From Candidatus Limnocylindrales bacterium (GTDB lineage Bacteria > Chloroflexota > Limnocylindria > Limnocylindrales > CSP1-4), in NCBI GenBank assembly GCA_038327765.1, contig JBBQLI010000004.1:1-57435 (forward strand): a stretch of 57,435 nucleotides of DNA, read 5' to 3'. This document shows, in pieces, positions 1-7,548 of this stretch (within the stretch, counting starts at the first letter, position 1; every line of letters starts with the position of its first letter). Both the position numbers and the translations under genes were made by a program. The notes beneath the pieces are model-generated. The model did no database searches. It was not told the DNA's origin and saw nothing but the letters and a program-made list of their open reading frames with translations.

Positions 1-597
1 GTAGGCCTCGAACCCGACGGTCGCGCGCCGGATGAAGGCGTCGTTGGCGAGGCCCGCGTGGATGATCTCGCGGCCGATCGCGTTGGCGAGCGTGATGTCA
101 CTGCCGACATCGAGGCCGAGCCAGGCGTCGGCCCACGCCGCGCTGCTCGTTCGCCGGGGGTCCACGACGACCAGCGTGGCGCCCTTGTTGACCGCCTTCA
201 GGACGTGGTGGAAGAAGATCGGATGCGTCTCGCGGGCGTTGCTGCCCCACAGGACGATCAGGTCCGTTTCTTCGATCTCACGGTATGAGGATGTGCCGCC
301 CCCGGCACCGAACACTGTCGCCAGACCGGCGACGCTTGGGGCGTGTCAGGTCCGGTTGCAGCTATCGATGTTGTTGCTGCCCAGGATCGTCCGGCTGAAC
401 TTCTGTGCCGCGAAGTTGACCTCGTTGGTCGCCTTCGAGCAGCTGAAGGTGCCGAAGGTCGTCGGGCCATGGGCCGCCTTCGCGGCTCGGAACCCTTCGA
501 CGGTCCGGTCGAGCGCCTCGTCCCATGTCGCGGGTCGGAGCTCGCCCTTCGTGTCTCGCACGAGTGGCTGGGTCAGTCGCACGTAGGGCTTTGCCAC
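1..597 (-). CDS. fdhF: Selenocysteine-containing formate dehydrogenase alpha subunit (molybdopterin oxidoreductase), 3'-truncated by window edge
   Basis: GTG start at 597 with AGGAGG RBS. The frame reads ...SNNIDSCNRT-TGA(346-348)-HAPSVAGLATVFGAGGGTSSYREIEETDLIVLWGSNARETHP... and stays open to base 1, matching the FdhF catalytic motif (CAR-U/C-HxPSVAGL). SECIS follows and sel genes are nearby. Confidence 0.93.
300..348 (-). promoter_or_regulatory. Bacterial SECIS element
   Basis: Minus strand UGA CAC GCC CCA AGC GUCGCC-GGUCU-GGCGAC: a perfect 6-bp apical stem (317-333) starting 12 nt after the UGA, very like the E. coli fdhF SECIS. Confidence 0.88.
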
Positions 598-690
598 GAG
601 GTGGCCTCCTGAAGGGCGGTTGACCGGGCGAGTGTACCGCGCGGTCCGACGGATCCGGTGGGCGGTTGCGCTCGTACGTATGCTCGGCGC

Positions 691-882
691 ATGAGCAACA
701 AGTTCGACGTTCCCGGCAAGCTCCCGGCCCTGGCCGCCCGCCAGGAAGAGGAACAGGCTCGCCGGCGCAGCGATGCCGAGTTCCGGGCCTCGGCGCAGGG
801 TGGCGAGGCTGATGCGGAGCCCGCCGTCGACCCGGTCGCGCGGTTCCTGGCCGCGATCCGTCGAGCGATCCGCCGAGGCTGA
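691..882 (+). CDS. Small hypothetical protein (63 aa), probably leaderless
   Basis: ATG at 691 lies 6 nt after a TATGCT -10 box; typical codon usage; fills the gap between divergent and convergent neighbours. Confidence 0.6.
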   Translation: MSNKFDVPGKLPALAARQEEEQARRRSDAEFRASAQGGEADAEPAVDPVARFLAAIRRAIRRG

Positions 883-905
883 CCGGCGGATCGCGCTCGC
901 CGGTC
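881..905. terminator. GC-rich hairpin between convergent genes
   Basis: GACCGGCG-N9-CGCCGGTC inverted repeat; no U-tract. Confidence 0.4.
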
Positions 906-907
906 CG

Positions 908-1549
908 TTATGCGGCGGGCGCCTCGGAGCGGCCCATGCGCATGACGAAGCGGAGGAAGAGCCCCGCCGCAGTCAGGGCGAACAGCACCAGGCTGATGAT
1001 CAGGATCGGCCAGGCCAACCCGTTGACCACGACCGGATCACCGCTGGTCGCACTGAGCGCAGCCGGCACCCCACCGAGACCGAACTGACCCAGCCAGTCC
1101 ACCTGGTCGGCGGCTTCGAGCCCGTAGACCTGCGGGACGATGTACAGGACCGAGGCGATCACCAGCAGGACGCTGACCAGTGAGAACGCACGCGGATCGT
1201 CGTCGGCATCCCGCACCAGCTTCACGACGAGTGCCCAGAACAGGACGACCACCGCGAGCGGTCCGGTGAGGGGCAGACCGAGGCCGATATACAGGTTCGG
1301 CATCAGCATGATCACGCTCATCGCCAGGACGATCCCCAGCAGCGCATCGCGCATCAGGACGTAGCTGAGCCACCACACGTCGCCGCCGAAGCGGAGCGTC
1401 AGCGACTGGAGGAAGCGGATCACGTAGGGTCGCGCGAAGTGCATGATCATCGCGAAGGACCACAGGATCGGCAGGATCGCGGACACGGAGAGGACCAGCC
1501 AGCCGGCCCCGCCCGTCGTCAGTGCGGTGGCGAGTTCGTCGGCACTCAT
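908..1549 (-). CDS. Uncharacterised polytopic membrane protein (paralogue B)
   Basis: MSADELATAL...; about 5-6 hydrophobic segments; ATG overlaps the upstream stop (ATGA) with an AGGAG RBS; paralogous to 1546-2172. Confidence 0.85.
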   Translation of the reverse strand: MSADELATALTTGGAGWLVLSVSAILPILWSFAMIMHFARPYVIRFLQSLTLRFGGDVWWLSYVLMRDALLGIVLAMSVIMLMPNLYIGLGLPLTGPLAVVVLFWALVVKLVRDADDDPRAFSLVSVLLVIASVLYIVPQVYGLEAADQVDWLGQFGLGGVPAALSATSGDPVVVNGLAWPILIISLVLFALTAAGLFLRFVMRMGRSEAPAA

Positions 1550-2172
1550 CGGGTCTCCTTCTTGCTGAGGTCGAGGCGGGCCTTGCCCGATGCCTGGCGC
1601 AGGTTGTAGCCGACGGCGATCGCGGCGAGCACGCCGACCAGGACCGCAGACAGGTAGCAGAACGCAAGCGCCCAGTCGGGGTTCTGCGAGCTGACCAGCG
1701 TCGCGGCCAGCTGGTTGGTGACGTCGTTGCCGATCTGGGTCACCTGGACCCCGAGGAAGTACGGGACGATGTAGAGCGTCGCTCCAAGCGCGAGCAGGCC
1801 GACCTGGGCGCGGAACCAGCGCAGGTCGCTGTCGCCCTTGACGAGCTTGATGACCAGGACCGCGAACGCGCAGACCGCGGCCAGACCGCCAGTGACGGGC
1901 AGCTCCTTGCCGGTCACCACATCCGGGTAGAAGAAGATGAAGCTGCCCAGGAAGATCTGGACCACGAACAGGTCGCGCAGGGCGATGTAGATGATCCACC
2001 ACAGGTCCGCGCCGAGTCGGAGCGAGAACTTGTGGACGTTGCCGGCCATGTAGGGGCGGGCCATGAAGAGGCCGAGCGCCAGCAACCAGAGCACGACGAG
2101 CGCCGCGCCGATGGTGCCTTCGATGAAGCCTTCGCCGGCATCGAACAGCCCGGATACCTGGTCGGGGGTCAT
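1546..2172 (-). CDS. Uncharacterised polytopic membrane protein (paralogue A)
   Basis: MTPDQVSGLF...; AGGAGG RBS; ATGA overlap with the upstream oxidoreductase; shares ARPY, LR.G.D.WW..Y...RD, LP.TG, KLV and LYIVP motifs with 908-1549. Confidence 0.85.
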   Translation of the reverse strand: MTPDQVSGLFDAGEGFIEGTIGAALVVLWLLALGLFMARPYMAGNVHKFSLRLGADLWWIIYIALRDLFVVQIFLGSFIFFYPDVVTGKELPVTGGLAAVCAFAVLVIKLVKGDSDLRWFRAQVGLLALGATLYIVPYFLGVQVTQIGNDVTNQLAATLVSSQNPDWALAFCYLSAVLVGVLAAIAVGYNLRQASGKARLDLSKKETR

Positions 2173-4124
2173 CGGGGTCCTCCTGCTGTGGGTGTCGTGG
2201 ATAGGGCGGGCCGGCCGGGTCCGTCGGCGGGTCCGCGTCCGGCCACCACGGTGACCGTGGCGCACCCGTCGACGGCATCGCAACGGAAGCAGCGGGCCGC
2301 CTCGGCGAGGGCGGTCGGTTCATCGAACCCGGCCTGATTAGCACGGAACGAGCCTGGTTCGAAGATGGGCAGTGGCTGGCGTCCGCGCGGACGCGGGGCG
2401 AGGTCGAGCCGGAGGCTCGTTTCGACCGCGGTGGGGTAGCGGACTGTGGCGAGGATCTCGGCCTCGCCGTCCTTCGCGCCAGCGAGGTACTCGTGGATGG
2501 CACCGGCCGCCCGTCGGCCCGAGGCGACGGCATCGATGATCGTCTTGGGGCCGGAGACCACGTCGCCACCGGCGAAGACGCCGGCATGGCCCGTGGAGAG
2601 CGTCCGTGGGTCCGCGACGATCCCGGCGAAGGCACTGACCTCGATGCCGGCCCCCTCCGGCAGGATCGATGGATCGGGCTCTTCGCCGACCGCCACCAGG
2701 ATCGTGGTGGCGGGGATGGTCGCGTCGCTCCCCGGTACGGGCGCCCAGATCGCGCGGCCGCCTTCGATGGCGCCGGTCGGCGCCTGTTCGCTGATCCGCA
2801 TCCCGGTGATGGTGCCGTCGGTCCCGAGGACCTCGGTCACGACCGTGCCGATGCGGAGCTGGACGCCTTCAGCTCGGGCGGCGTGGACCTCCTCGGCCTG
2901 GGCCGGCATGTCGGCGGCCCCGCGTCGATAGAGGACCGTGACTGAGTCGGCGCCGCTGCGGAGCGCCGAGCGGGCGGCGTCCATGGCGGTGCTGCCGCCG
3001 CCGACGACCACGACCGGGCCCGCAAGCCGCGGTCGCTCGCCAAGGTTGACCTGTTTGAGGAAGAGCGTGGCCGGGACCACGCCGCGGAGCTGGTCGCCCG
3101 GGACACCGAGACGTCGGCTCTTCGGGGCGCCGGTGGCGAGGAAGATCGCCGCGTAGCCCTCTTGCTCCAGGCCGCTCAGTGTGAAGTCGCGGCCCATCAC
3201 GGCATCCAGGCGCAGGTCGACGCCCAGGTCCACGATCCGGTCGATCTCGGCACGCAGCGCCTCGCGTGGCAGCCGGTACTCGGGGATCCCGATGGCCATC
3301 ATCCCGCCCGGGATGGGCATCGCCTCATAGACCGTCACGCCATACCCGAGTCGGATCAGGTAGTAGGCGGCGGACATCCCGGCCGGGCCGCCACCCACGA
3401 TCGCCACGCGCTCGGAACGGCGGGTGGTGGGCGGCGCGACCGGCGGCAGTGTTCCGTGTTCGACGGCGAACCGCTTCAGGGTGCGGATGGCGATCGGCTC
3501 ATCGAGGATGCCGCGGCGGCAGGCGGATTCGCACGGTGCGGTACAGATCCAGCCGCAGACCGAGGGGAAGGGATTGACCTCGGCGGCCACGGCATAGGCG
3601 TCGTCGTAGCGGCCCTGTGCCACCAGCCCGACATACCGGCCCGCGTCCGTCCCGGCGGGACAGGCGCCCTGGCAGGGTGCCGCGGGAGCGAGCGTGTCAC
3701 CGAGCGGGGACGACTCGATCTGCCACGGCTGAAGCGGGCGGTGGGTCATCCAGCCGTCGGTCTCGAACGGCGAGACGCGCGTGGGCTTGAGGGCCTCGCG
3801 GGTGATCGACGACCACGGGATCCAGCCGCTGGTGGGTTCCGGGCGGGAGATCGGACCCTGGCGCGGTGCCAGCGGCGTCGCGCCATCCACGACCACAAGG
3901 TCGATGACCGAGACCGGGCATTCGCCGACGCACACCGAACAGCCGATGCACTCGCCCACCTGGATGGGGTGCTCCATCGTCCACGGCAGCGCGACGCCGC
4001 CCGGACCGGCTTCGATGCCTGGGCTCGTCGGGCGGGTCATGTCGAGCGCCTGCACCGGGCAGACGTCCATGCAGATGCCGCAGTTGATGCAATCGCTGTG
4101 GTCGATATCGATCCGGTAGCCCAT
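2169..4124 (-). CDS. Fe-S flavoprotein: N-terminal 2x[4Fe-4S] ferredoxin fused to a GltD/NfnB/DsrL-like FAD/NAD(P)H oxidoreductase
   Basis: CINCGICMDVCP and CIGCSVCVGECP; PCQGACP, CGWICTAPCESAC; GGGPAG FAD motif; GIPEYRLP; GGGSTAMD...YRR; GVFAGGD; C-terminal EAARCFRCD. Confidence 0.9.
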   Translation of the reverse strand: MGYRIDIDHSDCINCGICMDVCPVQALDMTRPTSPGIEAGPGGVALPWTMEHPIQVGECIGCSVCVGECPVSVIDLVVVDGATPLAPRQGPISRPEPTSGWIPWSSITREALKPTRVSPFETDGWMTHRPLQPWQIESSPLGDTLAPAAPCQGACPAGTDAGRYVGLVAQGRYDDAYAVAAEVNPFPSVCGWICTAPCESACRRGILDEPIAIRTLKRFAVEHGTLPPVAPPTTRRSERVAIVGGGPAGMSAAYYLIRLGYGVTVYEAMPIPGGMMAIGIPEYRLPREALRAEIDRIVDLGVDLRLDAVMGRDFTLSGLEQEGYAAIFLATGAPKSRRLGVPGDQLRGVVPATLFLKQVNLGERPRLAGPVVVVGGGSTAMDAARSALRSGADSVTVLYRRGAADMPAQAEEVHAARAEGVQLRIGTVVTEVLGTDGTITGMRISEQAPTGAIEGGRAIWAPVPGSDATIPATTILVAVGEEPDPSILPEGAGIEVSAFAGIVADPRTLSTGHAGVFAGGDVVSGPKTIIDAVASGRRAAGAIHEYLAGAKDGEAEILATVRYPTAVETSLRLDLAPRPRGRQPLPIFEPGSFRANQAGFDEPTALAEAARCFRCDAVDGCATVTVVAGRGPADGPGRPALSTTPTAGGPR

Positions 4125-4228
4125 CGCTGACTCCGCTAGGGACGCGTCTCCCGCAGCGTGCGATGGATGGGCCATCCGCGACCCATGCCGGCGAGTGGGA
4201 AGGGCTCCCCTCGGATCGGGTAGGTGGT

Positions 4229-4260
4229 CCCTGCCGTGTGGCCCGGGCCAGATGGCAGGG
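4229..4260 (-). terminator. Hairpin directly after the response regulator stop
   Basis: CCCTGCCGTGTGGCCC/GGGCCAGATGGCAGGG near-perfect inverted repeat. Confidence 0.4.
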
Positions 4261-4938
4261 TCAGCCGGATCGGTCACCGAGCGGCGGCACAAGACCTTCG
4301 CCGACGGCCCGCGCCGCCAGTTCCGCGCGACTGCTCGCGTGGAGCTTCTCGAGGATGTTGCGCAGGTGGAACTTCACGGTGTTCTCGCTGATCCCGAGTT
4401 CGCTGGCGATCTCCTTGTTGCGCTGCCCGCGGGTCACGCACCCCAGGACATCGAGTTCGCGCTCGGTCAGCCGGTCGGGATCCACCGGGCGGCGCGTGAT
4501 CTCCGGTGCGGCGACGAGGCGCTCGCGGCGCAGGAACTCGCTGATGATCCGCGCCGCGGTGGCCGGTGTGATGGCCGCCTCGCCACGTCCCACCGCCTCC
4601 AGCATGGAGCGCAGCTGGGCGGCCTCCAGGTTCTTGAGCAGGTAGCCCTGGGCGCCCGATTTGATCGCCTCGAACAGGTCGTCCTCGTCCTCCGAGACGG
4701 TCAGGATGACGATCGCGGTGGCAGGGCGGGCCGCCTTGATCCGGGCCGTGGCGGCAAGACCGGAGCCACCCGGCATCCGGACGTCCATCAGGACAAGGTC
4801 CGGCTCGACGATGGCAGCGAGCCTCACGGCTTCCTCCTCGCTGCCGGCCAGCCCCACGACCTCGTGCCCCCACGCGCCGACCAGCGACGCGACGCCGTCG
4901 CGCACGAGCGTGTGGTCGTCGGCGATCAGGATCCTCAT
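4261..4938 (-). CDS. NarL/LuxR-family response regulator
   Basis: [24 protein letters not shown] receiver domain; LTERELDVL...[27 protein letters not shown]. Confidence 0.95.
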
Positions 4939-6266
4939 CGGGAGCCGCCGCCGCCCGCCGTCACGTGGACGGGCGGATGGATCGGGACGCGCAGCTCGAT
5001 CGTCGTGCCCATGCCCGGCGCACTCGTCCACGTGATCCGCGCATCGATGGCGGCGGCGCGCCGGCGCATCGCGGTCAGCCCGTAGTGCGGCCAGTCGCTG
5101 GGACCGTCATCGGCGTGGTCAGCGTCGAAACCGCGACCGTCGTCCGTGACGGACACGACGAGCCGATCGTCCTGACGACCGAGGACCACGGACACCCGCT
5201 GCGCAGCGGCGTGCTTGCGGACATTGGTCAGCGCCTCACGGACGATGCCAAAGATCTCATCGCGGACGGGGGATGCGATCGTCCCCGTGTCGAGATCCGG
5301 CTCGATGCGGAGGGCCAGGGCCACCTTGGATGCATCGGCAAAGCGAGTCGCGTAATCGCGGATCTCCGCCCCAAGCTCCACCTCGTCGCCGACCGGCTCG
5401 GTCAGTCCCTGGATCGCCTGGCGAACGTCGACGTAGATGGATCGCGCCGCCTTCCCGAGCTCGGCCATCTGGGTCCGGGCCTCCGCTGTCCGCCCGGCCT
5501 CGAGCAGACCCTCGACGGCCTGCGACTTCGTGTTGACGTAGCCAAGGACCTGGGCCAGCCCGTCGTGGATCTCGCGTGCGATGCGTTCGCGTTCATGGCG
5601 GATGGCGAGCTGCCGAAGTTCGGCTGCCAGCCGGTCGTTCTCGATGGCGATGGCGGCCTGGTTCGCCAGCGACGAGAGGGTCTCGAGGTCGACGACTCCG
5701 TGACCCGGCGTCGCTCGACCGGCCACGGCCAGGGTCCCGATCGTCGCGCCGCCCCGACGAAGTGGCGCGGCCAGCACGGACGGCGGCGGCTCCCCGCGGA
5801 GGAACCGGGCAGGATCGGCTCGTCCGGACCCTCCGGTGCGATCGAAACCGTCCTCGGGGCCGCTGGTCGAGCGAAGCCGCGCGCGCCCGTCGGAGCCGTT
5901 GAGCACGAGCAGACCGAGATCGGCGTGGAGGAGCGAACGTGCGCTGTCCACGGTGACCTGCAGGATCGCATCGAGGTCGGCCAGCGACGCGATGGCAAGC
6001 GAGACTGCGTGGAGCGCCCGGGCCGTCGCGGCGGCCCCCTCCACCTCCGTGTTCCGGACCTCGAGCGAGGCAGTCAGGCGATCCATCCGATCGAACGTGC
6101 GCCCGGCGAAGGCGGCCGCCAGGGCGGCAACGACCAGCGTCACGAGGATCGTGTCCCAGGGGAATGGCAGATACGGATCGAGGACCGTGTCGCTGAGCAG
6201 CTCGAGCGAGCCCACGAGGGCGGCCGGCGCTCCGACCGCCAGCCAGCGCCACTGTCGCGAGATCAC
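4935..6266 (-). CDS. Sensor histidine kinase (2 TM, GAF, HisKA_3, HATPase)
   Basis: [16 protein letters not shown]-box, [11 protein letters not shown]-box, DDGRGFD, YGL; GAF-like segment ending [11 protein letters not shown]; GTG start with RBS. Confidence 0.93.
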
Positions 6267-7451: not shown

Positions 7452-7548
7452 GGGAGCGGACGGGTCCCGGTGGATCCCCTGGTCTTCAACACCAGTGGCG
7501 CGGCGCTCAGCGCGGCGCGGTGGGTTCGACTCCCACGCGTTCCCGCCA
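7452..7548 (+). tRNA. selC: tRNA-Sec (anticodon UCA)
   Basis: 6-bp D stem GGGTCC/GGATCC with CGGT loop; CTGGT-CTTCAAC-ACCAG anticodon arm; long variable arm; GTGGG-TTCGACT-CCCAC T arm; 3' GCCA; lies directly upstream of selA. Confidence 0.95.

Follow-up and report, generated by a model that had tools for sequence, protein, structure and literature searches.

A ferredoxin-GltD flavoprotein and two paralogous membrane proteins form a conserved module in Chloroflexota and may pass electrons from NAD(P)H to quinone

A three-gene module encoding an iron-sulfur (Fe-S) flavoprotein and two small membrane proteins has been identified at positions 908 to 4124 of contig JBBQLI010000004.1 of Candidatus Limnocylindrales bacterium (assembly GCA_038327765.1). 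The window analysed is the whole stretch of 57,435 nucleotides (nt) at positions 1 to 57,435 of this contig, forward strand; its DNA is high in GC (0.66-0.75), and the closest relatives of its proteins are labelled Chloroflexota or Limnocylindrales. The module is real and strongly conserved and, judged from sequence comparison, most likely specifies a membrane-docked enzyme for electron transfer from NAD(P)H to quinone. The membrane proteins are encoded by the genes here called memA and memB, and the three genes are arranged as follows:

2169-4124, minus strand: flavoprotein gene, encoding a ferredoxin::GltD-like Fe-S flavoprotein of 651 amino acids (P0001)
1546-2172, minus strand: memA, encoding a five-helix membrane protein of 208 amino acids (P0002)
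908-1549, minus strand: memB, a paralogue of memA, encoding 213 amino acids (P0003)

The start codon of memA (2172-2170) overlaps the stop codon of the flavoprotein gene (2171-2169) and the start codon of memB (1549-1547) overlaps the stop codon of memA (1548-1546), both as ATGA junctions. An earlier sequence-only reading of this DNA had described three genes joined by such overlaps, and both junctions are verified by their coordinates. The same reading had taken the two membrane proteins of about 210 residues to be alignable, which holds as well: BLASTP gives 36% identity over 145 amino acids with an E value of 4e-26, far beyond chance. The motifs quoted for the pair (ARPY; LRxGxDxWW..Y...RD; LPxTGxLA; KLV; LYIVP) all lie inside this alignment and are invariant or nearly so in alignments of 29 and 76 sequences. 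A scan of positions 560-4400 for consensus promoters and terminators returned 0 sites, and no RNA data were found among sequencing runs.

The flavoprotein is built of four consecutive parts:

3900..4124, minus strand: N-terminal 2x[4Fe-4S] ferredoxin domain, residues 1-75, with an insert of about 36 residues between the Cys motifs
3681..3899, minus strand: family-specific Trp/Pro-rich ferredoxin extension, residues 76-148, a candidate docking element
2475..3680, minus strand: GltD/NfnB-like module for NAD(P)H and flavin adenine dinucleotide (FAD) with two [4Fe-4S] sites, residues 149-550 (Pfam)
2172..2474, minus strand: C-terminal extension with the motif EAxRCFRCDAVxxC (C612, C615, C621)

Pfam places Fer4/Fer4_7, that is, the 2x[4Fe-4S] ferredoxin domain, at residues 6-73, Fer4_20 (PF14691) at residues 149-223 (E 4e-16) and Pyr_redox_2 (PF07992) at residues 239-536 (E 3.6e-34). 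In an alignment of 76 sequences the Fer4_20 cysteines C151, C155, C190, C194, C198 and C202, which serve two [4Fe-4S] clusters, are nearly invariant; at the dinucleotide sites G244, G246, G249, G377, R400 and R401 are invariant and G375 and G376 nearly so. The predicted combination of Fer4_20 cluster ligands with Rossmann-type FAD and NAD(P)H sites is the one that characterizes GltD/NfnB-type proteins. In the ferredoxin domain, C12, C15, C18 and C22 together with C59, C62, C65 and C69 are invariant in a 13-sequence alignment that contains stand-alone ferredoxins. The extension behind it carries the motif QGPI..W.PLS.(Y/V)T..DPWG..W.P..R..QTWR, common to fused and stand-alone ferredoxins. Its low confidence in the model of the flavoprotein alone (predicted local distance difference test, pLDDT, of 54-61 over residues 91-150) is consistent with a segment that becomes ordered on a partner. 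Within the C-terminal extension R611, C612, R614, C615 and D616 are invariant, and C621 nearly so, in the 76 sequences; the segment aligns to residues ~559-570 of 9bov_A/StnC and to the N-terminal Cys motif of NfnB (4ylf_B 19-52) and probably supplies cluster ligands rather than a membrane contact. Homology thus predicts for the whole flavoprotein one NAD(P)H/FAD site and four [4Fe-4S] sites. By eye the protein shows no signal sequence and begins directly at the first cluster motif.

The nearest sequences in the PDB are 9n5u_A, the NfnA of NfnABC (3.2e-102), 9bov_A and 8oh5_C (StnC), all aligned over residues ~149-619, followed by NfnB (4ylf_B), GltD and DPD. The AlphaFold2 (AF2) model of the flavoprotein (pLDDT 80.8) yields the same order in Foldseek, with 9n5u_A at the top (E 9.8e-45) and template modelling (TM) scores to NfnA, NfnB and GltD of 0.54-0.63 on the query. 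StnC of Sporomusa ovata StnABC (8oh5) and NfnA of Bfu-type NfnABC (9n5u, 9bov) are therefore the closest known systems (E 3e-102 to 9e-89 by sequence, 1e-44 to 1e-42 by Foldseek), NfnB (4ylf), GltD and DPD being more distant. The flavoprotein shares with them the sites for FAD and NAD(P)H, the motifs for two [4Fe-4S] clusters and an 'RC.xC' segment near the C-terminus, and its residues 149-619 align to StnC 102-569. In the StnABC report, the GltD domain of StnC (residues 102-565) contains FAD, NADPH and two [4Fe-4S] clusters, is non-bifurcating and passes electrons singly into the cluster chain (PMC10482914). By sequence this domain would be the best model for residues 149-550 of the flavoprotein. 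Unlike StnC and NfnA, the flavoprotein possesses an N-terminal 2x[4Fe-4S] ferredoxin with its special extension and has no NuoG/formate-dehydrogenase-like domain, and its partners are two small membrane proteins instead of soluble HydBC-like subunits. It is a new architecture inside the known GltD/NfnB/StnC kind. In NCBIfam every match stays under its curated cut-off, the best being PRK12771 (446.8 bits against 516), with YgfK at 275.9 against 835.3; the assignment to a named equivalog (GltD, AegA, YgfT, YgfK, PRK12771 and others) was rejected, as no cut-off was reached.

The membrane proteins gave no match to a characterized family. In Pfam and NCBIfam, memA and memB have only noise matches at E<=1, and a 29-sequence profile of the membrane proteins has 0 matches among PDB sequences at E<=10. 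At E<=0.001 memA has 1479 homologues; none of the 120 listed bears a name other than 'hypothetical' or matches a Pfam domain. That the family is narrow is indicated by a profile search, in which just 301 of 1.84 billion cluster representatives reached E<=0.001. The AF2 model of memA (pLDDT 90.8, predicted TM score 0.84) consists of five long helices and short surface helices. With this model Foldseek returned 0 PDB matches at E<=0.001, and a wide VIA-align search gave, among its top 50 matches, a best Z of 10.3 to designed helical bundles, a value in the tool's stated non-specific range for helical proteins, from which no fold is assigned. Solved haem anchors are absent from the Foldseek matches and from the VIA-align top 50, a missing match that does not exclude a fold. 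In the ESM Atlas memA matched only unnamed Chloroflexota clusters and then DUF5692 at 0.80, under the lead threshold, and P0249 had no usable match among named clusters. No description of the membrane family or of its dedicated ferredoxin turned up in the literature searched. Both are undescribed in Pfam, in NCBIfam and among PDB sequences and folds, in agreement with the initial view that the membrane proteins belong to no recognised family.

Fourteen positions are invariant over 15 memA and 14 memB sequences: W29, R39, P40, L51, R52, D56, W59, R66, D67, S77, P83, P92, T94 and K109. From the conserved set the single-copy relative P0207 keeps R68, Y70, D85, W88, R95 and D96. No Cys column is common to memA and memB, and the memB of the window is devoid of Cys. 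A single His reaches a frequency of 50% or more, at position 36/37 (79% of memA and 95% of memB sequences), where the memA of the window has Phe and the single-copy relatives have Gln. With no shared Cys and one partly conserved His, binding of haem or Fe-S clusters by memA and memB is unlikely. The absence of conserved His pairs had been read from the sequence at the outset, and on this ground a haem-b anchor of the NarI, FdnI or haem SdhC/D type was rejected.

The orientation in the membrane was derived from the distribution of lysine and arginine in 76 sequences per paralogue. The mean number of these residues per segment is, for memA and memB respectively, 0.04 and 0.16 at the N-terminus, 3.6 and 3.75 in loop 1, 0.37 and 0.24 in loop 2, 2.3 and 2.0 in loop 3, 0.58 and 0.36 in loop 4, and 3.7 and 2.5 in the C-terminal tail. 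The positive charge of loop 1, loop 3 and the tail indicates that both proteins are N-out/C-in and therefore parallel. The sequence-only reading had described the pair as pseudo-symmetric, in the sense of an inverted topology, and this part of it does not stand. Independent support for an outer N-terminus comes from three relatives, P0138, P0143 and P0157, which fall inside the memA clade and, judged by eye, have a signal-peptide-like start and a hydrophilic domain of about 100 residues before helix 1. In the membrane model so obtained, ARPY, LRLGAD, K109 and the acidic loop 3 would face the cytoplasm at the membrane surface, with R66-D67 deeper, some ten residues along helix 2; these depths are estimated from secondary structure and topology. 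Among the outer domains, that of P0143 (metagenome) has His as the first residue of the mature part and many Met, His and Glu residues, and that of P0157 (metagenome) contains repeated 'DAHADEAE' units, which are acidic His repeats. These domains, including that of P0138, have no Pfam match and may bind metal at the outer face.

The gene pair is closely tied to the flavoprotein. Among 301 Chloroflexota genomes memA is present in 28, the window's own included, nearly always as two adjacent matches, and the module occurs in 27 of the 300 other sampled genomes. The order flavoprotein-memA-memB is found at 19 of the first 20 genome loci fetched; the 20th (L034) has a separate ferredoxin of 145 amino acids in ATGA overlap with memA and no GltD part. 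The bacterial-type set was extended to 152 loci, 100 from genomes and 52 from metagenomes. In this set the flavoprotein or its ferredoxin domain ends at most 400 nt from memA in 122 of the 123 loci with at least 2.1 kilobases (kb) upstream, the exception (L165) showing the order memA-ferredoxin-memB, and memB adjoins memA downstream at 135 of the 140 loci with at least 750 nt downstream. The survey of neighbourhoods thereby supports the earlier proposal of a membrane pair tied to the flavoprotein.

A metagenome scan with distant relatives yielded 80 loci, of which the 39 of at least 5 kb were examined; 16 of them possess a single membrane gene. At 15 of these a 2x[4Fe-4S] ferredoxin gene of 147-170 codons lies directly after the membrane gene on the same strand, and at the 16th the ferredoxin gene lies upstream on the other strand. 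The stand-alone ferredoxins are homologous to residues 1 to ~120 of the flavoprotein and share all eight cysteines of its ferredoxin domain. Such loci indicate that the conserved core is a ferredoxin plus a protein with five transmembrane helices (5-TM). The window contains this core, an ARPY/LRLGADxWW/RD protein beside a 2x[4Fe-4S] ferredoxin with W.PLS.YT..DPWG, and the GltD module appears from sequence to be an NAD(P)H entry added onto it. Comparative genomics reveals an obligate association of this ferredoxin subfamily with the 5-TM family.

The history of the membrane genes was followed in a maximum-likelihood tree of 77 rows (25 of 75 de-duplicated loci, the window, L034, L165, 12 single-copy loci and 9 representatives). 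All 28 memB rows form one clade (99/94), memA forms another (97/84), and the two together are separated from the single-copy forms at 100/100. These clades point to one old duplication with retention of both copies, from which a memA-memB heterodimer is inferred.

At several single-copy loci the neighbours are of archaeal type (family B DNA polymerase, HTH_10, V4R, GvpD), as seen in a scan of 61 of the 152 open reading frames (ORFs) called in 14 loci. One relative is labelled 'archaeon' by NCBI, and the asparaginyl-tRNA synthetase beside L139 has its closest named proteins in Micrarchaeota and Marsarchaeota (66-71%). A third gene of 148-176 codons, without family, occurs together with a V4R protein only at four close single-copy loci (L124-L127) and was for this reason left out of the module. 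A Ser_hydrolase (PF06821) gene directly follows the ferredoxin gene at L139, L142, L136 and L143. Beyond the module the neighbours vary: Hsp20, Usp, DsrE, Pyr_redox_2, F420H2-quinone reductase, P-type ATPase and others were met among 37 neighbours from 9 of 20 loci.

Several apparent fusions were set aside. The 364-residue ORF of L034 is no ferredoxin-memA fusion, since the ferredoxin there lies in another frame as a separate gene. At L025:7520-10099 the flavoprotein frame runs into memA without a stop, giving an ORF of 859 residues; as a functional fusion it would conflict with the N-out topology, and a lost stop codon with internal initiation is more likely. The long matches P0132, P0226, P0261 and P0270 were read as frame-scrambled gene calls. 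The genome itself holds a second, partial copy of the module on a contig of 1.8 kb (C163; L002:1-1052), with the 3' part of a memA 75% identical to that of the window and then a memB of 221 codons; this copy belongs either to a variant strain in the bin, whose contamination is 3.45%, or to a second operon.

The three proteins probably form one membrane-bound complex, as supported by the ATGA overlaps, the adjacency at 122/123 and 135/140 loci and the ferredoxin at all 16 single-copy loci. The earlier idea that NAD(P)H/Fe-S electron flow has a membrane partner of two subunits is retained as the best reading and, by analogy, the complex may be a haem-less NAD(P)H:quinone oxidoreductase, with a probability of roughly 0.4. 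NAD(P)H would be oxidised at the FAD of the flavoprotein, and the electrons would go singly down a wire of four clusters to the N-terminal ferredoxin domain, which would sit on the cytoplasmic face of the memA-memB heterodimer via the Trp/Pro-rich extension. The acceptor site would be formed by R39-P40-Y41, R52, D56, W59 and K109 at the inner surface together with R66-D67 in helix 2, and the acceptor would most likely be a quinone. The ancestral unit would be the ferredoxin plus 5-TM protein, as preserved at single-copy loci with archaeal-type neighbours; in Chloroflexota the membrane gene would have been duplicated once and the NAD(P)H input module fused to the ferredoxin.

The working analogy for such an enzyme is the haem-less complex II type. 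FrdC/FrdD of E. coli, and likewise SdhC/SdhD, are pairs of small related hydrophobic subunits; anchors of the haem-less type contain no redox cofactors, hold the Fe-S protein at the inner face and form the quinone site from Arg, Asp, Tyr, Trp and Ser, a set that the conserved residues of memA and memB may resemble. Such subunits, however, have three helices each and memA and memB five, no sequence or fold match to FrdC/FrdD or SdhC/SdhD was found, and the docking protein is a 2x[4Fe-4S] ferredoxin, unlike SdhB/FrdB. A related logic, and a second working analogy, is known from NrfCD, PsrBC, DmsBC and ActBC, in which a four-cluster ferredoxin partner and a cofactor-less quinone-reactive membrane subunit serve as a conserved pair for a variety of catalytic modules. 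Proteins of the NrfD kind contain at least eight helices, and export is common among their Fe-S partners; membership of the NrfD/PsrC type was rejected, there being no Pfam match at E<=1 and five helices in the memA model. The sequence-only reading had pointed to RnfA/RnfE and NqrD/NqrE. These also are two paralogous membrane subunits of about 200 residues linked to NAD(P)H or ferredoxin, but they have six helices, opposite orientation and conserved Cys holding an Fe-S centre. The analogy fails here on five helices, the same orientation, no shared conserved Cys and no family match.

Two other GltD-like fusions are encoded in the same genome. On contig C15 (L206:2331-7332, minus strand) a GltD-like flavoprotein of 611 residues with a C-terminal 2x[4Fe-4S] domain heads an operon that includes cytochrome b C-terminal/petD-like, Rieske and cytochrome c-cupredoxin proteins; GltD-like flavoprotein-ferredoxin fusions on Rieske/cytochrome b complexes are of the anammox type. 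On contig C56 a fusion of 872 residues (L207:5595-8210, minus strand) combines NuoG-like [2Fe-2S] (Fer2_4), GltD-like Fer4_20 and Pyr_redox_2, and NuoI-like 2x[4Fe-4S] parts. Its gene sits between nuoH and nuoJ-nuoK-nuoL of a complex I operon (L207:2710-13326), which suggests that a flavoprotein input for NAD(P)H is built into this complex I. An NAD(P)H-ferredoxin module joined to a quinone-reactive membrane system is therefore a recurring design in this genome, and the two fusions support a quinone as acceptor by analogy. Their membrane partners come from familiar families that carry haems or, in complex I, the quinone chamber, in contrast to memA and memB, which form an unknown family without cofactor ligands; moreover, the ferredoxin domain is C-terminal in both fusions and N-terminal in the flavoprotein of the window.

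A number of points weigh against a quinone-reactive enzyme. memA and memB are without haem, Fe-S or metal ligands, so that any acceptor must reach the last cluster at the inner surface. The charged R66, D67 and K109 inside the helices fit an ion path equally well, and a quinone site at the inner face leaves the extracellular domains of P0143 and P0157 unexplained. The variable neighbourhood gives no pathway context. A complex prediction with memA, memB, flavoprotein residues 1-150 and two 4Fe-4S clusters, run without controls and with the ferredoxin domain as partner, scored 0.29 and 0.20 against a mark of 0.32 and counts neither for nor against binding. As a more general and more tentative proposal, the ferredoxin plus 5-TM pair might be a minimal enzyme of a new type that feeds low-potential electrons into the quinone pool, perhaps coupled to ions; the electrons might come from ferredoxin-dependent oxidoreductases, or from NAD(P)H when the GltD module is fused. 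Respiratory chains would then have an entry point so far unrecognised, and the pair would be a candidate route for the re-oxidation of ferredoxin in some archaea with few respiratory genes; at one group of loci the neighbouring asparaginyl-tRNA synthetase is most like that of Micrarchaeota.

The same charged residues could instead belong to a redox-driven ion translocator or a redox-gated channel, Rnf/Nqr-like in logic and not in ancestry, in which H+ or Na+ would move via the intramembrane Arg-Asp pairs and the Lys, driven or gated by the docked ferredoxin. R66 and D67 (helix 2) and K109 (helix 3) are invariant in both paralogues, the Arg and Asp are kept in single-copy relatives (R95 and D96 of P0207), and electron transfer from NAD(P)H to quinone spans a potential gap that could drive ion transport. 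Voltage-sensor domains do appear among the weak fold matches of memA (4g7v_S, Z 7.5; 6n4i_A, Z 7.2), but within the non-specific helical-bundle range, where de novo bundles reach Z 10.3. The membrane part has no redox cofactor ligand, no Rnf/Nqr family match occurs at E<=1 in Pfam or NCBIfam, and a pump would still need an electron acceptor, so this possibility adds to a quinone enzyme more than it replaces one; as a full alternative it is improbable.

Similarly unlikely is a non-catalytic role, either as a passive tether or scaffold for a membrane enzyme encoded elsewhere or with the flavoprotein as a redox sensor controlling a memA-memB transporter. Co-occurrence of genes speaks for association and not for catalysis, and the variable neighbourhood leaves room for a partner encoded elsewhere. 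However, a mere tether would need neither about 14 invariant polar and aromatic positions across the paralogues, several of them kept in single-copy relatives, nor the retention of both duplicates in all 28 sampled lineages.

A transmembrane link to an outside substrate, for instance as a metal reductase or in metal uptake, is less probable still. It would account for the outer domains of the three memA-clade relatives, with the Met/His/Glu-rich P0143 and the HADE-type repeats of P0157, and YbjQ_1 'putative heavy-metal-binding' and cupredoxin genes occur near two single-copy loci (L139, L124). Yet the membrane core has no conserved His, Cys or Met and hence no visible path for electrons or metal across some 30 Å. 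The outer domains, whose metal-binding character was judged by eye, are found in only 3 of the best 150 representatives and are missing from memA and memB of the window.

If the membrane pair is indeed a quinone-reactive or ion-coupled acceptor for its dedicated ferredoxin, the module would be a respiratory input from an undescribed protein family. It is small (two or three genes), widespread in soil Chloroflexota and also present on contigs with archaeal-type neighbours. Complex I, NDH-2, Rnf and Nqr would then be joined by a further route for electrons of NAD(P)H or ferredoxin into the membrane. The reading of energy metabolism from genomes of Limnocylindria, abundant in soils and sediments, would be altered, and perhaps also that of small-genome archaea in which the path of ferredoxin re-oxidation is uncertain.

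Genes for selenium and formate metabolism surround the module:

1-597, minus strand: TGA-containing formate dehydrogenase (FDH) gene, with a GTG start at 597 after AGGAGG
691-882, plus strand: candidate gene, an ORF of 63 amino acids beginning MSNKFDVPGKLPALAARQEEEQARRR..., convergent with memB and situated between it and the FDH gene
7452-7548, plus strand: selenocysteine tRNA (tRNA-Sec, anticodon TCA), between selD (minus strand) and selA-selB-mobA (plus strand)

The in-frame TGA of the FDH gene lies at 346-348 (..SCNRT-TGA-HAPSVAG..), and the part of FDH within the window shows no N-terminal Cys cluster motif before the selenocysteine site. The window contains ORFs for SelD, SelA, SelB and a MobA-like protein, and the first in-frame GTG of the selA-containing ORF, at 7520, falls within the tRNA-Sec. 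The sequence-only reading had suggested a possible link of the module to the selenocysteine-containing FDH or to selenium handling; the module would then be the membrane partner of FDH or take part in that pathway. In favour of such a link, the start of the FDH gene is found 311 nt past memB on that strand, selD, tRNA-Sec, selA and selB are all situated within 7 kb, FDH is nearby in three close relatives (L047, L048, L069), and the flavoprotein recalls GltD-like proteins such as YgfK, at scores far under the cut-offs. The link is nevertheless scarcely credible: FDH is nearby at only 3 of the 152 related loci, SelD at 1 and SelA, SelB and MobA at 0; none of the five occurs at the 20 genome loci fetched first; the single-copy forms lack selenium or formate neighbours; and in the window the opposite-strand ORF separates memB from the FDH gene, which is preceded by a ribosome-binding site (AGGAGG) of its own. 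Besides this refuted link, the topology, the tree with its single duplication, the Cys-bearing C-terminal segment and the two further GltD-linked membrane operons are the points specific to this window.

On the other side, the operon is preceded by a two-component system and a candidate operator:

4261..4938, minus strand: NarL/LuxR-family response regulator (Pfam Response_reg and GerE), upstream of the operon
4935..6266, minus strand: sensor histidine kinase with hydrophobic N-terminus, GAF, HisKA_3 and HATPase_c (Pfam)
4217..4250, minus strand: candidate operator region between the regulator and flavoprotein genes, with the palindrome TGGCCCGGGCCA at 4250-4239 and CCTACCCG at 4224-4217

Among the 109 related loci with at least 4.5 kb upstream, the response regulator is present at 92 and the GAF-HisKA_3 kinase at 83, and this adjacent GAF-kinase/NarL-type pair probably controls expression of the module. 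The best PDB sequences for the regulator are NarL (7.3e-34), VraR and DevR, and only the ATPase part of the kinase matches solved structures. As the regulator is equally close to all three proteins, a specific DosR assignment was rejected. In 75 upstream regions GG[CG]CC-N0-6-GG[CG]CC occurs 37 times and CC[CT]ACCCG, mostly near -100, 41 times, both counted by region without a shuffled control; the palindrome and CCYACCCG may constitute the regulator site. At seven loci without the adjacent kinase/regulator pair (L151, L159, L160, L175, L182, L190, L195) an AGGGTC-N4-GACCCT-like palindrome, noticed by eye and followed by TA(C/T)T, lies about 60-90 nt upstream of the flavoprotein gene, which suggests a different operator, possibly of the NarL/DosR type.

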